Assembly (NCBI GenBank): GCA_000004695.1
Contig: CM000151.3
Location: 8,128,001-8,192,000, forward strand
Origin: Dictyostelium discoideum
Lineage: Eukaryota
Direction of reading: 5' to 3'
Length of the DNA stretch: 64,000 bases
Shown: positions 8,499-56,491 of the stretch, piece after piece
How positions within the stretch are numbered: the stretch's first letter is position 1
How the letters are laid out: each line of letters begins with the position of its first letter
Notes under the pieces: generated by a model
The model's input: only the letters and a program-made list of their open reading frames with translations
What the model was told of the DNA's origin: nothing
Databases searched by the model: none
Position numbers and translations under genes: made by a program

Positions 8499-8957
8499 AT
8501 GACAAGTAAATATTGTTGCCAACATGATGAATTTTCTTTAAGAAAGCTTAAAAAAAGTGAAGATTTCACTCTTTACCTTGATGAATTACTAGATCAAGAT
8601 GAGTTTCTAAAGATTCAGCCTGGTTACTGCACAGAGGAATGTAAACAAAAAATGAAGGAGATTTATAGAATTACATTCGAACGTTATATTGAGACTATAA
8701 ACAAATATTACAGTGACAGCAGAATTTTTGAATATAACTTGGGAAAAAATCCTCGAGGATGTGATATTTGGATGTATCGAGAATTTTTCAGTACTCCACC
8801 CCCTATCTCTCCCCAAGATGAATATGCTAGAATGGTCATAAAAGCAATGAAAGTTGGTATTAAAGATGGAAAGCCTGTTAGATTATGTGAATTGCCACCT
8901 GGTGTACAATGTGATTTTGATGCAAAAAACCTACCTGATTCTGAAGAAGATGAATAG
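8499..8957 (+). CDS. hypothetical 152-aa protein with codon usage atypical for this genome
   Basis: Intact ATG-to-TAG ORF (MTSKYCCQHDEFSLRKLKK...). It uses cag, gag, aag, cga, ccc and ggt codons much more often than neighbouring genes, and local G+C is visibly higher. No recognisable domain. Confidence 0.45.
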   Translation: MTSKYCCQHDEFSLRKLKKSEDFTLYLDELLDQDEFLKIQPGYCTEECKQKMKEIYRITFERYIETINKYYSDSRIFEYNLGKNPRGCDIWMYREFFSTPPPISPQDEYARMVIKAMKVGIKDGKPVRLCELPPGVQCDFDAKNLPDSEEDE

Positions 8958-9149: not shown

Positions 9150-9365
9150 TTACCATATATATCGTTGAGCTTCTTGTGCAGTTGCAAAGGTTCTAATTAG
9201 CTCTTGTTTTTCTCTAAGTCTTTGCAATCGTCTTCTTTCACTTTCTTCTTGCATCAACCTTCTTCTTTCTTCTTGTTCAGCCAATCTTTGTTGTGTTTTT
9301 TTAATTTTTATTAATTTTACCGTTTCAGGGTCTGCTTCAATTTCTTTTTTTTGATGGGCACCCAT
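9150..9365 (-). CDS. hypothetical small (71 aa) Glu/Arg/Gln-rich coiled-coil protein
   Basis: ORF MGAHQKKEIEADPETVKLIKIKKTQQRLAEQEERRRLMQEESERRRLQRLREKQELIRTFATAQEAQRYIW, convergent with the 3' end of 8499..8957. No introns evident. Confidence 0.3.
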   Translation of the reverse strand: MGAHQKKEIEADPETVKLIKIKKTQQRLAEQEERRRLMQEESERRRLQRLREKQELIRTFATAQEAQRYIW

Positions 9366-9429
9366 CGTTTTTTTTTAAAAAGTAAACCTAATGATTTATA
9401 CATGTTTATATTTAATAATTGAGAATTTT

Positions 9430-9900
9430 TATTTTATGACATTGGTTTTGAATTATTTTTAAAAAAATCATTTTAAATTTTCTTTGATTCGTTACATTTT
9501 TGTTTCTATCTAATGATCATTTTCCAATGATTTTATATTAATGGTCATTGGAAAATCCTTTAGCTAGGAATTCTATAGAGAATCATTGAGTAAATAATGG
9601 TTTCTATAGGAAATCTTTAAACAACCATTAAAAATCGTTGATTTTTCTTTGGCTCAATTTTTAATAGTTTTCTATGTAATGGTCACATCTATACCGTTAT
9701 CAATCTAAAACCATTGGAAATAACAATATCTAATGATTTTCAATAAAGTTCAATAAAATTATAAAAAAATGAAAATAATGGATTTCATTAAAAGAATTTT
9801 TTTAAAATAAGATTAAAAATTTTATTTAAAGAATTTTTTTATTGATTTCCATAAGGAAACCATTATATGATTTTTTTTTTTTGTTTTTTTTTTTTTTATA
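9430..9900. repeat. cluster of short imperfect inverted/direct repeats built on a CCATTGGAAA / TTTCCAATGG-type core
   Basis: Roughly 8 copies: gatcattttccaatgatttt, aatggtcattggaaaatcc, aatggtttctataggaaatc, aaccattaaaaatcgttgatttttc, aatggtcacatctataccgttatc, aaaccattggaaataacaa, aatggatttcattaaaag, gatttccataaggaaaccatta. Several pairs are reverse complements of each other. The region is noticeably less AT-rich than normal intergenic DNA. Confidence 0.6.
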
Positions 9901-10020
9901 AAAATGAGAAAACTATTGGTACTTTATTATAATTAAAATAAAATAAATATTAATAAATGTAAAACTTTATAAAATAAATATTATTATAATAAAAGTAATA
10001 ATAAGGATAGATTGATTTGA

Positions 10021-10075
10021 TTTCTTGAAATTAATAACGAAATTAATAACGAAATTAATAACGAAATTAATTTGA
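10021..10075. repeat. 12-bp tandem repeat (cgaaattaataa) x3 flanked by the direct repeat tttgatttct
   Basis: gatttgatttcttgaaattaataacgaaattaataacgaaattaataacgaaattaatttgatttct. Confidence 0.7.
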
Positions 10076-11056
10076 TTTCTAAAAAATGTTTATTTTTTTT
10101 TCTATTTTTAGTGTAAAAAAGGGGGAAATAATTTAATTCATCAGTGAGCTGTCATTTTTAGTTTTGAACGTTTTGCATCATCAGATTCCAATGTTTGACT
10201 ATAAATATTTTCTTTACTTTTAATCTCTTGTTTAATTATTCTCTATCACGTTTTGGTTTCATTAGACCCTTGTTATATTCCAATGCCGATGATTCATTAA
10301 TACGGTCAAACTCTTTTTGAAAAGGTGTAGGTGGTACTTTCTTTAATTTTTCGGTGAACAAAACCGATGATGATTTATCACCAGTTATAGTTTTTGAAAG
10401 TTTTTTCCTATCGATTGGCATCTCCAATGTTGAACCTTTTTTTTATAATTTTCTTTTAAATCCATTCAAATTCATTTTTTTAAAAAAAATTATTCAATCA
10501 TTTTTTTAAAAAAAAAAAAATTTAAACATTAATTAAAATTATATTTTAGAAATAAAAAAGAAAAAAATGGAGCTTTTAATTCCATTAAGTTTATTGGGAT
10601 TATATTTATTTTCAGGGACAAGAGATTCAGTTCATAAGGGAGAAGTTAAAGATGACTTGAAAGAGAAACCTATAAAAGTTAATTTTAATTTAACTGACTC
10701 TACAAAAGTTGACCATAAAACTCATCTCAAACAGTACAGTTCATTAAAACCAGGTGACACATTGGAAATATTATAACAAAAACATTTAGATCACTCTACG
10801 AAAGATTTAAAACACCCAGTATCCATTATCAATGATAAGTCTGACAGTAAAATTCATCTTAAACGAACATACCGGAAAAGTTAAAGTTAAATTTATTGAT
10901 CATACAATTCGTAGTGATGTTAGACCAATCTCATTTGGAATTAATAAAAAATAATTTATTTTCTAAAAAAAAAAAAAAAATTCTCTTTATTATTTATTAT
11001 TTATTTTTAAAATTAGTTTTGTTTTTTTAAAAAAAAAAAAAAAAGAAAGAAAAAAA

Positions 11057-12300
11057 ATGGGTATCAGTGATCAAATCAATAGTAATTTATCAAGTCAATC
11101 TCCATTTACTGTAAGTACAAACCCAAGTGATTCAATGTTTCTTCCAACAAACAGAATTGCAAAAACAGCAGATTGGAAAGAGGAGAAAAAATATTACTAT
11201 CCAAAAGAATCGATTCAAAGTATTTATGAAGGTACAACAGTTCGTATCGTAATCGATAAACAAAATGGTAGACTTTATGGTTTGGAAATGGTAGTTGAAA
11301 TTGGACCATTGACTGCAAATGGTGCTACATTTACACGTCTCTGTAGGGATGTTGCTCATTCGATGGCCTATAGTGTTTCAATATGGAATGGTAATAATGA
11401 AATTCATAGACTTCATATGGATCATGAAAGAATTGAGATGGTTTTAACTAAATTAAAACATGAAAGGGACATGGAAGATAAGATGGCCGGTTACTATGAT
11501 GATGCGACACGTACTGCATTGGGTGCAACAAAACAAAAATTAATTTTTGATTTGAATTTCTTTCATACTGTCCACACTTCTGATGCACTCTATTTAAATG
11601 CCTGGCATTGAAATACACTTATCAAATTAAGATCAATCCTTTAAGAAGATGGGTAGAAACCGATGGTACTGATCCAAAAGCTAATGATTTCAAAGTTTAT
11701 CTTCGTGCTGATATTATTCATACACCACAGGATGAATATCGTATAGTTCATAATACTATCAACACTGGTACTGGTATTTTTTCACCAATTGAACATACAG
11801 AGATGAAAGAGCGTGTAGTACTCAACGTTGGTGAATCAAAACATTATGTTCAATTAACAAACATTATTGGTAATGGTCGTTCTTATTTTGTTGTTTTAAG
11901 AAGATTGGCAGACACTGAAAATCCAAAAGCACCAAGATATGATGATTTCATGCCATGGGAAAATATGCGTTTATTACATGCCGGTAATAAGGAAGTTCAT
12001 TTACCACATAATAATATGATGGATTGTTTTAAACATTTAAAGCATCGTTTTCATTTTGATGCATCCTACAATGATGATAAATCTCCAAACAGTATGAATA
12101 TTTATGGCTTCAGTTTTTCAGCTAATCCTATCGATGTCAAAAATCGAACAGGTTGTTTTTCATTCTCACAAGCAAACAATCTTCAATTGGAAGTAACAAC
12201 AAAAACTCTAACTGAACCATGGGTACTCGATTTTTATACAGCATCCACTCAAATCATTCAACAATCTGGTAACACAGCAAAAACAATTCTCCATTATTAA
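11057..12300 (+). CDS. hypothetical ~413-aa protein encoded as two abutting ORFs (11057..11611 and about 11608..12300) related by an apparent -1 frameshift; possibly a pseudogene or mobile-element ORF
   Basis: ORF 1 (184 aa, MGISDQINSNLSSQSPF...ALYLNAWH*) ends at TGA 11609-11611. ORF 2 (230 aa, KYTYQIKINPLRRWVETDG...TILHY*) is open from the same point in the -1 frame and has no ATG of its own (the track's M is a TTG). There is no GT...AG intron of plausible size between them. Codon usage is somewhat less AT-biased than typical genes here. Confidence 0.4.
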
Positions 12301-12440
12301 AAAAAAAAATAAAAAAGTATAAAAATAAAATTTTTTTTTTTTTTTATTTAAAATTGATAAAGAATTTTTTTATTAAAAATTAAGTCTATCGTTTCGTCGT
12401 TATCTTCTTTATCTTCGTTATCGTTGTCGATGGCATTGGT

Positions 12441-13443
12441 CTATAGATTATCTACTGATTTTTTAAAGATTTTTTTCTTTAGTTTTTTCATTTCTTTCTT
12501 TTTAGTTTTTTCCTCCTGAATTAACCACCACCCAGGGCATACTGAATCAGTGGGTAATGAACCCCTCTTTATATCAAAACGAGGCAAATCTTTAAATTGA
12601 TGGTATAGATTCGTATACTCATAAGGAGTGTATCTAAAGATTTCAAATTCTTTAAAAGAACTACCGATAGTAGACTTGTGTTTGGATGATAAAAACAAAT
12701 TTTTAAATTCAAACCATTATCACCTGGCGATAAAACTTCATGAAGTAATAATGTTTCTTTAAATTCCCATAGAAATATGTGATGATTCCTATCATTTTCA
12801 TTACAAACTCTACAATTCATTAGCTCCCGTTTCCTTAGAAGATCGATTAAAACCTTCCAATGTTCATCAATTTTCTCAAGTTTATGATTAAGAAAAAAAG
12901 ATTCCAGAGCAATTTTTATATGATGTAGCCGATTATCAAATCTATAAAGATGTTCTCAAACTTAATACAGTAAAAATTGGAAAGGATTTGGATGGAAAAC
13001 AATGTTTTATTCATGAGTTTGGTTCTTATGGTGACCGTATGGTTGGAGCATTGGTTGGTAGTGATCTCTTGGGTGGTTATAGTACTTTCTTTGGAATAAT
13101 TGTTTCGGTTTTCATAAAGAATAAGGACATTTCATTAAAATAATTCCTTCCATTGGTTAAAATCGATAGAGATTATACTGTTCCTGAAATGTTTGTTCTT
13201 TACAAAGAACTTAGATCAACTGGTCAATTTGCAAAATCACCAAATCTTTACAAATTTTATTGTTCATTACTTTGGCTCTTGGTAAATATTCATGAACAAC
13301 TTAGTGACGATGGTAAAAATGGTTTCGAATCTCAAGCGATCAACTTACCTCTTTGCAATTATATATTGGTGAATCTAAACACAGCGATTCCTTCGAAATT
13401 CTTTATTTTTTTTTTTTTTTTAATAACATCGCTCAATTTATAA
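12441..13443. pseudogene. degenerate, frameshifted ORF fragments on both strands immediately upstream of the tRNA gene; candidate mobile-element or foreign-gene remnants
   Basis: Minus-strand ORFs 12569..12820 and 12441..12698 overlap in different frames, so no intron can join them. Plus-strand fragments sit at about 12896..13140 (KKIPEQFLYDVADYQIYKDVLKLNTVKIGKDLDGKQCFIHEFGSYGDRMVGALVGSDLLGGYSTFFGIIVSVFIKNKDISLK*) and 13153..13443. Several stops and frameshifts separate the pieces, and CG-containing codons are present. Confidence 0.3.
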
Positions 13444-13486: not shown

Positions 13487-13559
13487 GGGGATGTAGCTCA
13501 GATGGTAGAGCGCTCGCTTAGCATGCGAGAGGTAAAGGGATCGATACCCTTCTTCTCCA
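13487..13559 (+). tRNA. tRNA-Ala (anticodon AGC)
   Basis: GGGGATGTAGCTCAGATGGTAGAGCGCTCGCTTAGCATGCGAGAGGTAAAGGGATCGATACCCTTCTTCTCCA. This is a canonical eukaryotic tRNA-Ala(AGC) 5' two-thirds: A box TAGCTCAGATGG, anticodon loop CTTAGCATG, and G3:U70. The T stem is AAGGG/CCCTT, with compensatory changes relative to the common CGGGG/CCCCG. There is one acceptor mismatch (T6:T67). A T6 Pol III terminator follows directly. Confidence 0.8.
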
Positions 13560-26193: not shown

Positions 26194-27379
26194 TTAAGCA
26201 AAGAAAACAACAAATATTACAATAAATACAATTAAAACTAAAAATATTTTTAAAATTAAACTTCTATTTGAAGATACATTTAAAAGTGTTTGAATTAAAG
26301 AATCGTGACCTCTTGAAATGTTTGCTAAAGAATCATCCATATTTGAATCAATTCTTTCAATGACTTCACCTTGCATCGATACCAAATTTGCTAATTGTGT
26401 GAAAATACCTTCTAATTGATTAATGGTCGATGATATATTCTCTGCTGCTCTTAAACGACTTGATGAATAATCTGTTGTATGCATCATTAATTCTTGTGGC
26501 ATTAAAATTGAATGTTCATTTGAATTATCATCATCCTCCATTTCATATTTATATAATGCTGAATCTAAAATAAATAAAAATAAATAAAAATAATAAAAAA
26601 AAGTTAGTTTTAAAATTGTAAAGTTAAAAAAAAAAAAAAAAAAAAAAAAAGAAGCACAATAACACAACAAACACAAGATGGTTATATGAACGAATTTGAT
26701 ATATTGATATTGATATATTGATATTTTGATATTTTGATAATTGGATAGACAGAGAGGGAAGGGGATGTAGAGGTACACAACAACAATAATAATAAACAAA
26801 AATAACAAAAACAATAATTAATAATTATTAATAAACTCTCTCACTAACCATCTCTGTTTGTTGTGTTACGGTGCCTAATATCACTTTTAGAAGAAGAAGA
26901 AGAAACATTACTATTATTTCCTGATGGATGTTCGTGTGATGAACCTGGTGGTGATGAAAATGTATTTGAATAACCTGAAAAACTATCTTTTTTCTCTTGT
27001 TGTTGTTTTAAACTCTATAAATAATAATATTTATATAGATTAATATATATAACTAAATCTAAATCTAAATCTATATCTAATATATACCTCTGTTCTAACT
27101 TCTAAAATATCTTTAAAATCTTTTGTCGCATTTGATAATTTTAAATTTAAAAATCCAACTATAGTCTCTGAATGATCACCAGTTTGTTTGTTTGGTTGTC
27201 TTGATGATTTTACATATTGATCAAGTGATGATAAATCTTTATTTAATTTTTGAATATCTTGTTTTATAATAAATGTTAATTCTTCAATTTGTGCTGATGA
27301 ATCCATAAATAATTTTGTATTTTTTGCCACTACATTTCAATATATTAGATAGATAGATGTTAGTTCCTTAAATTATGAA

Positions 27380-34779: not shown

Positions 34780-35218
34780 ATATAAAACACGTTTGAAATA
34801 GATTTAATTTAAATCTATAGGTGTTGATTGTACAATTATTTATAATGATATTAAAGGTATTGATATATAATGTTTGAATTTTTTTTTTTTTTTTTTTTTT
34901 TGTTGGTGAGATTTATCTTTGTTTAATTACTATTCTTTTTTTTTTTTTTTTTTTTTAATTATACTAGTATATATTTATATAAATTATTCGCGTTAAATAT
35001 TTTTTTTTTTTTCTATTTTACAAAATTATTTACAAGTTTCTTTTCTTTTTTTTTTTTTTTTTTTTGAAAACGAAAATTGGATTCCAGATATGTTGATTAA
35101 AAAATGATATTATTTATAATTAAAAATAAGATATTATATTATTAAAAAGGTAATCGCACATTATTTATATATCCTTTTTAAGTAATTAACAAATTATTCT
35201 TTGTTTATAAAATTATAT

Positions 35219-36224
35219 TTAATATGTACAATTTAAGATTAAATTTTGTTGTTGGATTTTAGTGAGTTTGGCACTATTTGGTGATGGTGGTGGATTACCA
35301 CTATTATTTTCAACAACATCTTCATCGCTATTATTATTATTGGTGTTATTATTATTATTATTATTATTTATATGTTGTTGCGCTTGTTGGTTATTATTAT
35401 TATGTTGTTGATGATGATTTAAGAAATGTTGTTGTTGAACTTGTAAATGATGATTATGAATTGAAGATTTTAACAATTCTGATGGAACTTTAACGCTACT
35501 ATTATTTGTAATTGAGAAACCTGGATTGGTTTGAGAATTAACTTTATAATTATTTCCACCAAATGGATTTGGAAGTGGAGATATCTTGAAAGGATCATCT
35601 GAACCACTGAATAATAATGGACTCTTTGAAGAGCTTGCAGATGGAGAAGTACTATTATTATTACTATTATTATTGCTGTTGTTATTGTTGTTGTTGTTGC
35701 CACTAGCACTCTTCCATGGTGAGAATGGATTGGATGGAATTGGTGGTGATGAACCATTACCAATTGTTGAATGATGATTAGCAGATAACAAGGATGGACT
35801 TGATGATGAATGATAGTTTGGAGGTGGTGGCGAGATTGTACCACCATTATTGTTGTTGTTGTTTGAATGATTGTTACCACCATCTAAAATGGTAATATGT
35901 GAAGTTGAATGTTGTGGTGGTGTATTAATTGAAGGTCCATTCAAAGTTAAATTGTTATTAAAGTTTGATAATGAAAAATGTACACCACTTGCAGTTAACA
36001 ATGGGGAATTACCAACGATGGAAGGACTGGTAGTCAATGAAGAATTTACAACATTTGATTGGCTAGTTGTCATTGATGCTGGATTGTTACCTCTTGGAGT
36101 TCTACATTTTGGTGATGGTGTATCAGAGAAAATCATTGGAGAATACTTTAATAATAACAATTCCTCTTCAGTAAAACGTTCTTCATCATGAGCTTTTCTT
36201 TTTCTATTTATATCACCTTCTTCA

Positions 36225-54370: not shown

Positions 54371-56491
54371 TAGAGTCAGTAAGAGAGAGAGAGAGAGAAG
54401 AAAAAGAGAAATTAATTTTAATTCCTCTTTTTTTGCGTTATGTGTATATATGATATCGAATTTTAATATATATAAAAAAAAAAAAAGAAAAAAAAAACCA
54501 AGAAAAAAAAAGTGAAATTTAAGATTAAAACCCGAAGACTAGTTTTATTACCATTCTTTGTCAAATTTTAATCAAATCGATTTTTTTTTTTTTTAAAAAA
54601 AAAAAATAAAACTATTTTCTTCATTTAATTCTCCTAATTATAATATTCGGGTTTATTTGTCCCCAAAAAAAAAAAAAAAAAACAAAACAAAAATAATTAC
54701 ATTTACAAAATATAAAAATTAAATAAAAAATTGTATAAAAATTTTTTTTTTTTGGGTTAAAATAAAAATAGTAAATCAGGATTTTATTTTTACTATTTTT
54801 ATTTTTTTATTTTTGTGTTTAGGAAAAATAAATTAGCATAGTTATTAATTAGTTATCCCATTTTTTTTTTTCCCGTTATGTATTTTTTTTTTTTTTTTTT
54901 AAAATAATAGCCCATATAGATAATAGGAGTGTGGTGAGTATGTGGAAATTAAAATTTTAAAATTAATTTTAATTCATTGTTTAAAATTGGCATATATATC
55001 TAATAATTTTTAATTTTTTTTTTTTTTTTTTACAATGGGGTTAATATCTTAAAATTGTGGGTGGGTTATGTAGTTTAACACTTAAAATAAGAAATTGGAT
55101 TCTAATTTCTTAATATTGTGATCGCCATACATAATGTAATTAAGGAGGGTTTCTTTTTTTGTGTTTACTTTTAGCTTTTTTTTTTGTTTTTTATTTTTAA
55201 AATTATTTTTTTAAATTTACACTTATTCTAAAATTGTTATTTTACTCATAGTTTCATTTCCATATTTTCCCCCTACTAATATATAATTATTATATATGAA
55301 TAATTAATATACAATAAGTTTTCTAAAAAAAAAAAAAAAAAATTTGAAAAAAAAAAATAAATATAAAACTTTTTTATTTATTTCTCCCTTTTTTAATATA
55401 TAATTTATATTTTCTTAATTTATTAATTATTTTTTTAATAAAAAGAAAATTATTTAACCAAATAAAAATTTGCTTTTAACAAAAAAAAAAAAAAAAAAAA
55501 AAACAATCAACAATTGTTTAATTAAATCTATAAATAAAAAAATATTTTTAATTTAAAAAATACAATTCACCTTAATAAAAAAAAAAAAAAAAAAAAAATG
55601 ACAATTATAAGTAAATATTATTAATAAATTATTTTTTTTTGTTATAATAAATTAAAATATCTAATTACATTTTTTTTTTAAAAAAAAAATAATTATAGAA
55701 TCATTAACATCAATTTCAAAAATATCAGTTAATCAAAAAGAAAAAATTAATACATCCAATAATGATAGATTAAATTTCCAAACTCAAAACGAAAATTCAA
55801 GATGGAAGATTCCTTCATACATTATATATAACGTTAAATACAGATTAATTGCATATTGTTAATAAAATTAAAAAAATGTAAAATAACGTTTAGGAAATAA
55901 ATAAATAAAATAATCTTTTTTGTACCTTAATTAACTTTTTTTTTTTTTTTTAAATAAAAAGTAAAATTTAAGATTTTTATTATTTTATTATTTTTTTTTT
56001 TTTATTTAGTTGTATATACTCTATTTACTTTCAAACCAAGATATTTTAAACTTTGAAATTTGGTTTACATTTCTAAAAGAGGAACTTCTAAAATAATTAA
56101 AATAATAATGGACAATTAGTAAAGCTTCCCCAGGGTATTAATAAAATTTTAATAAATTAGAAAACTTTTAATTTTTTACACTTTTAACAATTAGCAAGTC
56201 CAAATTAATAAAATAAAGTATTGTTCAAAATTATATCTTTATATTTTATTTTTGTTTTTTTTTTATTTTTTTTTTTTTTAAAAGGATGGGTTGGTTTGTT
56301 TTTAAAATAAAATAAAAAAAATAAAATATTTTTTAAAAGTTTATATGTTACATAATAAATATATAGATATATGTATCTCTTTTTTTTTCTTTTTTTATTA
56401 TTACTTTTTTTTTAATTTAAAAAATAAAGAAAAAAAAAAAGGATTATATATAAATTTGTTTTTTTTTTTTTTTAAATTTTTTTTTTTTTTT

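Follow-up and report, generated by a model that had tools for sequence, protein, structure and literature searches.

What is a cluster of reiterated, G/C-containing words doing in the spacer upstream of a small Dictyostelium discoideum gene? The question is raised by positions 9430–9900 of a 64-kb window of AX4 chromosome 2 (the window is the whole stretch of DNA analysed, and all positions are counted within it), for which a preliminary description had put forward a miniature inverted-repeat transposable element (MITE) or foldback element, an array of binding sites, or the terminal repeat region of a decayed transposon. Our analysis shows that the core of this region, at 9483–9780 (no strand assigned), is a non-coding, locus-specific, internally duplicated and dyad-rich spacer directly upstream of DDB_G0277459, a minus-strand gene (9150–9365, 100% match) for a 71-amino-acid (aa) coiled-coil protein, with the island occupying 118–415 bp upstream of the ATG. 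We favour the reading that the island is a promoter-proximal array of putative protein-binding or promoter-like repeats, with a probability of about 0.42, and the DNA around it appears to be a decayed remnant of a giant-virus-like element.

The G/C island exists, but it is shorter than the 470 bp first described: 9430–9900 as a whole has 19.5% GC, near the window mean of 20.7%, whereas the core delimited by GC content, k-mer enrichment, shuffle tests and the lack of an open reading frame (ORF) has 23.8%, as compared with 12–14% in the flanking spacers. All motif strings quoted for the region were found at their places, namely TCATTTTCCAATGA at 9517, TCATTGGAAAATCC at 9545, GGTTTCTATAGGAAATC at 9599, AAACCATTGGAAATAAC at 9708 and TTTCCATAAGGAAACC at 9846, and the CCAAT/ATTGG core does recur, with four occurrences within 9430–9900. 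The strings TCATTTTCCAATGA and TCATTGGAAAATCC, reported as exact reverse complements, are so over 12 nucleotides (nt) but not over all 14. The notion of one reiterated CCATTGGAAA-type motif had to be abandoned in favour of several overlapping word families, of which the recurring ones are CTAATGAT/TAATGRTCA, CATTGGAAA, TTCTATAG(A)GAAATC and AATAATGGTTTC. Likewise, the consensus WCCATTGGAAAW, suggested as a possible marker of a repeat family or promoter class, is not enriched across the window (59 matches versus 76.6 expected); allowing up to two mismatches, five of the 59 matches fall within 200 bp, at 9520–9721. Scanning with the single consensus ATTGGAAAATC (two or fewer mismatches) was too loose to single out the island, in which several word families are present, and was discarded.

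The density of repeated words nevertheless exceeds what composition alone would give. Shared 7-, 8- and 9-mers, direct and inverted, are on average about threefold more frequent than in 500 dinucleotide-preserving shuffles (p ~0.002–0.006) in the intervals 9495–9760, 9495–9875 and 9430–9900, and the combined count was reached by at most 0.4% of shuffles. Single island words are 8–17-fold over-represented relative to the remaining window; TAATGGT occurs five times versus 0.29 expected, GGAAA six times versus 0.75, and GAAAATCA, with up to one mismatch, nine times versus 1.08. When the 64 kb are scanned in 1,273 sliding windows of 380 bp, the island ranks first for inverted pairs of G/C-containing 8-mers and also for direct and inverted pairs together.

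The internal anatomy of the island is that of a stack of degenerate local duplications bearing short palindromes, which arose successively and comprise a 14-bp sequence present three times, a ~42-bp repeat and units of ~166 bp. Unit 1 (9503–9668, plus strand; repeat families D9, D11 and D12) begins with TTTCTATCTAATGATCA, and unit 2 (9669–9834, plus strand), identified from its alignment to unit 1 and the repeat listing, begins with TTTCTATGTAATGGTCA. The two units align with a score of 40, as compared with –2.3 ± 9.1 for shuffles, and the best ungapped offset is 166; both open with TTTCTATNTAATGRTCA, that is TTTCTAT[C/G]TAATG[A/G]TCA, and carry CATTGGAAA at an equal offset. Head-to-tail units thus align above chance, and offsets of 14, 28, 31 and 42 bp recur within the island. 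At the start of unit 1, direct matches at offset 28 and reading of the sequence define three 14-bp tandem copies on the plus strand (9509–9550; TCTAATGATCATTT, TCCAATGATTTTAT and ATTAATGGTCATTG), which include the 10-bp palindrome AATGATCATT at 9512. Overlapping them, the unstranded inverted repeat at 9517–9558 has TCATTTTCCAATGA and TCATTGGAAAATCC as its arms, with 12 exactly paired nt and a 14-nt loop (DNA hairpin –9.4 kcal/mol, z = –3.9). Further along the plus strand, the direct pair TAGGAATTCTATAGAGAATC/TTCTATAGGAAATC, also read as TTCTATAGAGAATC/TTCTATAGGAAATC, occupies 9565–9616 with offsets of 31 and 42 bp (repeat family D3). The AT-rich tail of unit 2 holds a 37-bp sequence repeated twice at 9766–9841, and beyond it an unstranded palindrome, GATTTCCATAAGGAAACC, followed by CCATTAT (9844–9866), is conserved in two related loci, L003 and L006. 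In addition, AATAATGGTTTC at 9593 is inverted relative to GAAACCATTAT at 9853, and the units carry the short dyads AATGATCATT, TCATTTTCC/GGAAAATGA and TTCYATAGGAA. Tandem Repeats Finder made no call in 9483–9738, its nearest being a 10-bp repeat at 9739–9757 and the 37-bp repeat at 9766–9841; this silence is explained by copies that are less than 70% alike.

Folding of the region, proposed earlier as a check, gave single-strand structures more stable than those of shuffles (z = –4.2 and –2.9 for RNA, –3.6 for DNA), in the form of a chain of short local hairpins and not an end-to-end foldback. Hairpin-type 3′-end signals are known from mimivirus, and a hairpin-forming transcript, acting either as the precursor of small RNAs that silence the viral element or as a 3′-end signal of the upstream gene, would accord with the stability of the RNA folds on both strands, with the 14-bp hairpin at 9517–9558 and with the palindrome at 9844–9861, which in L003 and L006 lies some 60 bp past the stop codon of the upstream gene. 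By comparison, a search of 9300–10200 returned no Rfam family even at E ≤ 10, giving chance-level matches only, and a scan of the window at gathering thresholds returned only a tRNA-Ala. In the alignment of related copies, which has the low power of three to five sequences, any compensatory pairs were doubtful and numbered two at most, many pairs were broken and the covariation term was positive (unfavourable); moreover, the stems are shorter than miRNA-like precursors require. Since the inverted DNA words themselves account for the fold stability, we regard such a transcript as improbable.

A decayed protein-coding exon or pseudogene that predates the divergence of the copies would account for coding-like G/C, as the GC content of the island (0.24–0.33) approaches that of the coding sequences of the element (0.30–0.34), and one frame of the copy L008a has somewhat fewer stops than random sequence. 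However, the AX4 island has stops in all six frames, no copy has an ORF longer than 46 aa, and none is conserved in L003 or L008. Substitutions fall 14/24/22 over the three phases without a 3-base periodicity, as compared with 16/13/37 for a 152-aa ORF used as a positive control, in which the periodicity is strong; tblastx was negative, and peptide-like repeats are accounted for by the palindromic and tandem DNA structure. We consider this origin quite unlikely. Classing DNA as non-coding by stop-free stretches is crude in this genome region, because runs of 50 or more codons without a stop cover 84% of the window.

Related copies of the island were reached through homologs of the 152-aa ORF and of a capsid-like ORF in three other Dictyostelium assemblies. 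The comparison set comprises seven copies, some of them mutually close: the AX4 window; L003 (10965–11560) in another assembly labelled D. discoideum; L006 (2903–3500) in D. cf. discoideum; L002a (L002 10968–11185) and L002b (L002 14505–14745, the same place as in L007), also in D. cf. discoideum; and L008a (L008 1240–1860) and L008b (L008 4330–4600) in D. dimigraforme. Beside each of the seven stands the same small gene, as a homolog or as a truncated remnant. The copies are 77–91% identical to the AX4 island and differ by insertion or deletion of whole units: L008a has three TTTCTATCTAATGAT-type units, and L002a and L002b have only the proximal 160–190 bp. The block 9483–9560 holds nearly all columns that are invariant in the seven copies, and the 14-bp tandem block is the best conserved across all of them. 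Within the copies, the island word set is 10–60 times denser than in the other 227 kb of Dictyostelium sequence compared, and no other cluster of these words was found in the 64-kb window plus ~166 kb of related Dictyostelium loci (~230 kb). The island therefore appears to be a single type of locus, inherited along with one gene, and not a dispersed repeat family or a promoter class. Beyond these genomes, IMG/VR gave no match to the conserved island block and no close relative of the capsid protein; one metagenome scan with a conserved 22-mer gave five chance matches, all in unrelated and G/C-richer contigs; and a literature search with the motif strings returned only primer and construct noise.

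The same comparison bears on a mobile-element origin. The short motifs are reiterated in both orientations within ~350 bp, as in the subterminal arrays of Ac and En/Spm, which hold about ten short motif copies in both orientations within 300–400 bp, and a DDE_Tnp_4 gene lies ~7 kb away in L002. Like MITEs and foldback elements, the island is small, contains inverted repeats and has a stable single-strand fold. However, it lacks the terminal inverted repeats, target-site duplications and dispersed copies of such elements: among long-range inverted pairs, the longest (9593/9853) measures 12 nt and lies off any homology boundary, the predicted DNA fold is a local hairpin string without a single end-to-end foldback, homology to the copies crosses both island edges, and the island is unique in the window, with no dispersed copies in ~230 kb and no window-wide enrichment of the consensus. 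Unlike the Ac and En/Spm arrays, it invariably accompanies one gene and does not mark an element terminus; in L003 and L006, which are more intact, it is internal, between two same-strand element genes. An origin as a MITE or foldback element, or from the subterminal repeats of a DNA transposon, is accordingly most improbable, and neither transposon option of the preliminary description is supported. The neighbouring debris that had been cited for them is present, but it is of a giant-virus-like kind, with capsid and VLTF3-like genes, and not of a transposon.

The gene next to the island sets the frame for its possible function. DDB_G0277459 has four AX4 paralogs (DDB_G0275483, DDB_G0268732, DDB_G0268726 and DDB_G0295815) and is C-terminally shortened relative to the 84-aa paralogs, with an 8–9-bp gap relative to L002 near 9156. 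Between gene and island, conservation and alignments delimit the proximal leader together with a putative core-promoter segment (9366–9482, minus strand). The 38 bp next to the ATG (9366–9403) are the most conserved stretch of the locus, with one or two mismatches across all copies (0.026–0.05 mismatches per site); the coding region, at 0.07–0.09 mismatches per site, is less conserved. Another CTAATGAT word lies in this leader at 9388, 20–30 bp from the ATG. Gene calls in L003 and L008 read the leader stretch as an N-terminal extension (MYKSLGL...); we rejected this extension for the AX4 gene and kept the annotated start codon, because its frame is broken in AX4 and it is absent from all AX4 family proteins.

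Among the explanations first offered, an array of binding sites is the one that survives best, given the upstream position, the dyads, the linkage to one gene and the retained G/C. Like a cis-regulatory module, the island lies upstream of a gene start and holds over-represented words in both orientations. The reiterated sites would work, or would have worked in the intact element, near the promoter of DDB_G0277459, where a dimeric factor that recognises specific DNA sequences, encoded by the host or by the element, may bind them and set transcription of the small gene; AATGATCATT and TCATTGGAAAATC are candidate bound sequences. The dyad symmetry of the words suggests a dimeric factor, and the occurrence of CTAATGAT in the ultra-conserved leader points to an origin of the distal units by duplication of the proximal promoter segment. 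There is precedent in Dictyostelium, where short G/C-containing elements are reiterated in AT-rich 5′ flanks, for example the G-box/CA-rich elements (CAE) bound by GBF. As in these regions, the island presents G/C words in near-pure A/T, direct and inverted, a few hundred bp upstream of a start. By contrast, the words CTAATGAT, CATTGGAAA and TTCTATAGGAAATC are neither G-boxes nor CA-rich, and the array sits in virus-derived DNA.

Several observations weigh against this binding-array reading. The mismatch rate of the island, ~0.20 per site, is the highest of all segments of the locus. Sites of a regulatory module would be conserved above their surroundings, yet positions in repeated G/C-containing 7-mers show 80% identity versus 79% elsewhere (131/307 in a circular-shift test); since conservation of the repeated words does not exceed that of the intervening bases, the binding array stands unproven. 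The perfect AX4 hairpin at 9517–9558 is lost in the other copies through one-sided changes. No known transcription-factor motif could be assigned to the island words, for which no Dictyostelium motif library was available, and literature searched by gene id made no mention of DDB_G0277459 or its paralogs. Furthermore, the AX4 element is visibly decaying, and the array is perhaps only partly functional in AX4 now, because the neighbouring element genes are broken.

Some of these observations also carry the main rival, in which the island is a neutral relic, a by-product of local tandem and inverted duplications in the spacer of an endogenized virus, with no present sequence-specific function and with donor G/C that has not yet eroded. 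Besides the lack of extra conservation of the repeated words and the several breaks in the AX4 element, this origin accords with a substitution density that is the highest of the locus, with many indels between copies, and with the apparent dispensability of the distal units, as L002a and L002b keep only ~160–190 bp. Given the absence of extra word constraint and the dying AX4 element, such a relic is nearly as likely as the binding array, and we hold it to be a real possibility. The composition of the island argues the other way. Its GC content stays at 0.21–0.24 in every copy and all species sampled (maximum 0.28–0.33 per 200 bp), whereas the other spacers of the element lie mostly at 0.05–0.13, and the array is retained beside every copy of the small gene, duplicates included. 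Lineage-specific substitutions show no AT bias, with 43 AT→GC versus 24 GC→AT changes, or 20 versus 13 when the hard-to-align L008a is left out. The island G/C therefore does not seem to be eroding toward the ~12% GC of neutral Dictyostelium spacers. This maintenance of G/C is only suggestive, because counts are small and the polarisation is by parsimony on paralogs, which again limits the case for a binding array.

A stronger form of the functional reading makes the island a virus-derived cis-acting module of an undescribed family of Dictyostelium giant-virus-like elements, kept by selection in several species. It could be an enhancer or origin of the type of the baculovirus homologous regions (hr), or a promoter array read by the VLTF3-like factor of the element itself, and selection would retain it together with the small gene, which the host keeps in five copies. 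In baculoviruses, hr arrays function as enhancers or origins and are bound by a dimeric activator. As in hr arrays, the island has tandem units with imperfect palindromes in an unusually long spacer of an element of large-DNA-virus type; unlike hr, with ~30-bp palindromes at several loci per genome, it forms one array per copy of the small gene and has shorter dyads. The island is comparable to G-box/CAE elements and, more loosely, to hr regions, but has no sequence in common with either. We take the viral module to be unlikely, if conceivable, and return to the promoter-proximal array as the preferred reading. Viral promoter words were also sought by eye, namely the mimivirus word AAAATTGA, the poxvirus-early-like AAAAATGAAAA and the chlorovirus word AATGACA; the matches were partial or single, unconserved across copies or on the wrong strand, and we make no claim from them.

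The element that holds the island is the second result of the analysis. Judged by its gene content, the ~5-kb segment 8360–13381 represents, in decayed form, one copy of an endogenous giant-virus-like element that is present several times; a large polinton-like virus may have been the source instead of a giant virus. The clearest marker is a double-jelly-roll major capsid protein gene of the Nucleocytoviricota type (11057–12300, plus strand), part of which is annotated as DDB_G0277467. Two ORFs, 11057–11611 and 11608–12300, represent one capsid gene split by a frameshift near 11600, and the intact 414-aa homolog P0014 is 95% identical to the AX4 capsid. The family consists of ~400-aa proteins, with two intact 414-aa homologs on one D. 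cf. discoideum contig and one in D. dimigraforme. Its profile matched capsids of nucleocytoplasmic large DNA viruses (NCLDV) in the PDB, with E = 1e-26 for Emiliania huxleyi virus (EhV) 201 and 3e-21 for the MCPv1 of Paramecium bursaria chlorella virus 1 (PBCV-1), and 18 of the 31 family members match Pfam Capsid_N. Consistent with the profile search, an AlphaFold2 (AF2) capsid model (pLDDT, the predicted local distance difference test, 84; predicted template-modelling score, pTM, 0.85) was matched by Foldseek to the capsids of PBCV-1, EhV and the iridovirus SGIV (Singapore grouper iridovirus) with E ~1e-22 and a template-modelling (TM) score of ~0.73. By profile and predicted fold, the element thus carries the double-jelly-roll major capsid protein that marks a Nucleocytoviricota-type element.

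Downstream of the capsid gene, alignment to L007 places an approximate 3′ remnant of a VLTF3-like gene (12350–12879, minus strand), whose 5′ half is deleted in AX4: window 10130–12879 aligns to L007 9069–11826, and the alignment then jumps to L007 13357. The corresponding ORF of L007 (11294–12706) scores 25.0 bits against Pfam Pox_VLTF3, exactly at the cut-off of 25. A primase domain of the African swine fever virus (ASFV) C962R type (AEP_C962R) in related loci scores 23.8 bits against a cut-off of 23, and more intact related copies also contain YqaJ and dNK genes and many ORFan genes. Upstream of the capsid gene, 10130–10475 (minus strand) is the 5′ fragment of a gene that encodes ~746–773 aa in related loci, with 95–96% identity to L003 20124–20456 and to L006 from 9066 onward. 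About 2 kb of its 3′ sequence were lost through a 5.6–8.6-kb deletion, the length of L006/L003 sequence that is missing in AX4 at the junction 9918–10129. This junction, defined by homology breakpoints and tandem repeat calls, is occupied by AT-rich filler without strand assignment that is absent from the related loci and contains, at 10027–10071, a perfect 12-bp tandem repeat of the GAATTAATAACG type (3.8 copies) between ATTTGATTTC words. The fragments at 10130–10475 and ~12350–12879 may be listed in the AX4 annotation as short hypothetical genes.

The left part of the shared block holds the 152-aa ORF (8499–8957, plus strand), a member of a dispersed, multi-copy Dictyostelium family with homologs of 62–95% identity. 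As 37 of its 66 substitutions fall at the third codon position, a strong bias, the ORF is evidently a real gene. It may be unannotated in AX4, because the closest AX4 database protein, DDB_G0288733, is only 62% identical. The Cys-containing protein has no Pfam match; the family has several copies per genome, and the ORF also occurs alone beside ordinary host genes in L001, L004 and L005.

Endogenous Nucleocytoviricota elements are known in protists, including Acanthamoeba, green algae, Euglena and Amoebidium (e.g. PMC12210455, PMC12455990, PMC11244446). The Dictyostelium block resembles them in its capsid, VLTF3-like, AEP-primase-like, YqaJ and dNK genes, in its multiple copies, and in its erosion by frameshift and deletion. 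We found no such capsid-bearing element for Dictyostelium in the literature searched, which is not proof that none has been published.

Some further observations concern the surroundings of the element and the rest of the window. Towards the end of contig JBTAPH010000039.1 (assembly GCA_054859205.1), two element copies are separated by ~55 kb, and retrotransposon genes stand beside L006 (RVT and integrase) and L008 (RVT and Phage_integrase, DIRS-like). A tRNA-Ala(AGC) gene at 13487–13559 (plus strand) begins ~100 bp to the right of the viral remnant and is assigned to the host flank, since the other loci have no related tRNA gene; mobile elements of Dictyostelium are known to insert at tRNA genes. 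The other ORFs of the window are ordinary amoeba genes, among them a DEAD-box helicase, a phospholipase B and an acyl-CoA oxidase. The next-highest counts of inverted G/C-containing 8-mer pairs occur at 35100–35700, which lies within a 586-aa ORF without a Pfam match, and at 26500–26700. A second G/C-containing island outside ORFs, at 54900–55200, has the G-box-like words GTGTGGTGAG and TTGTGGGTGGGTT and a terminal T-run; it could be a cluster of promoter elements or a small RNA gene, and it has no Rfam match at the gathering threshold.

Taken by itself, the island is nothing unusual, an upstream spacer rich in motifs and built by duplication; more noteworthy is its viral context. Should its words prove to be binding sites, they would offer a way into the control of a small five-member D. 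discoideum gene family of viral origin. The reference chromosome 2 of a model organism carries what appears to be a decayed, capsid-bearing giant-virus-like remnant, of which close relatives hold several more intact copies, and this remnant could lead one to ask what large DNA viruses have social amoebae as hosts.

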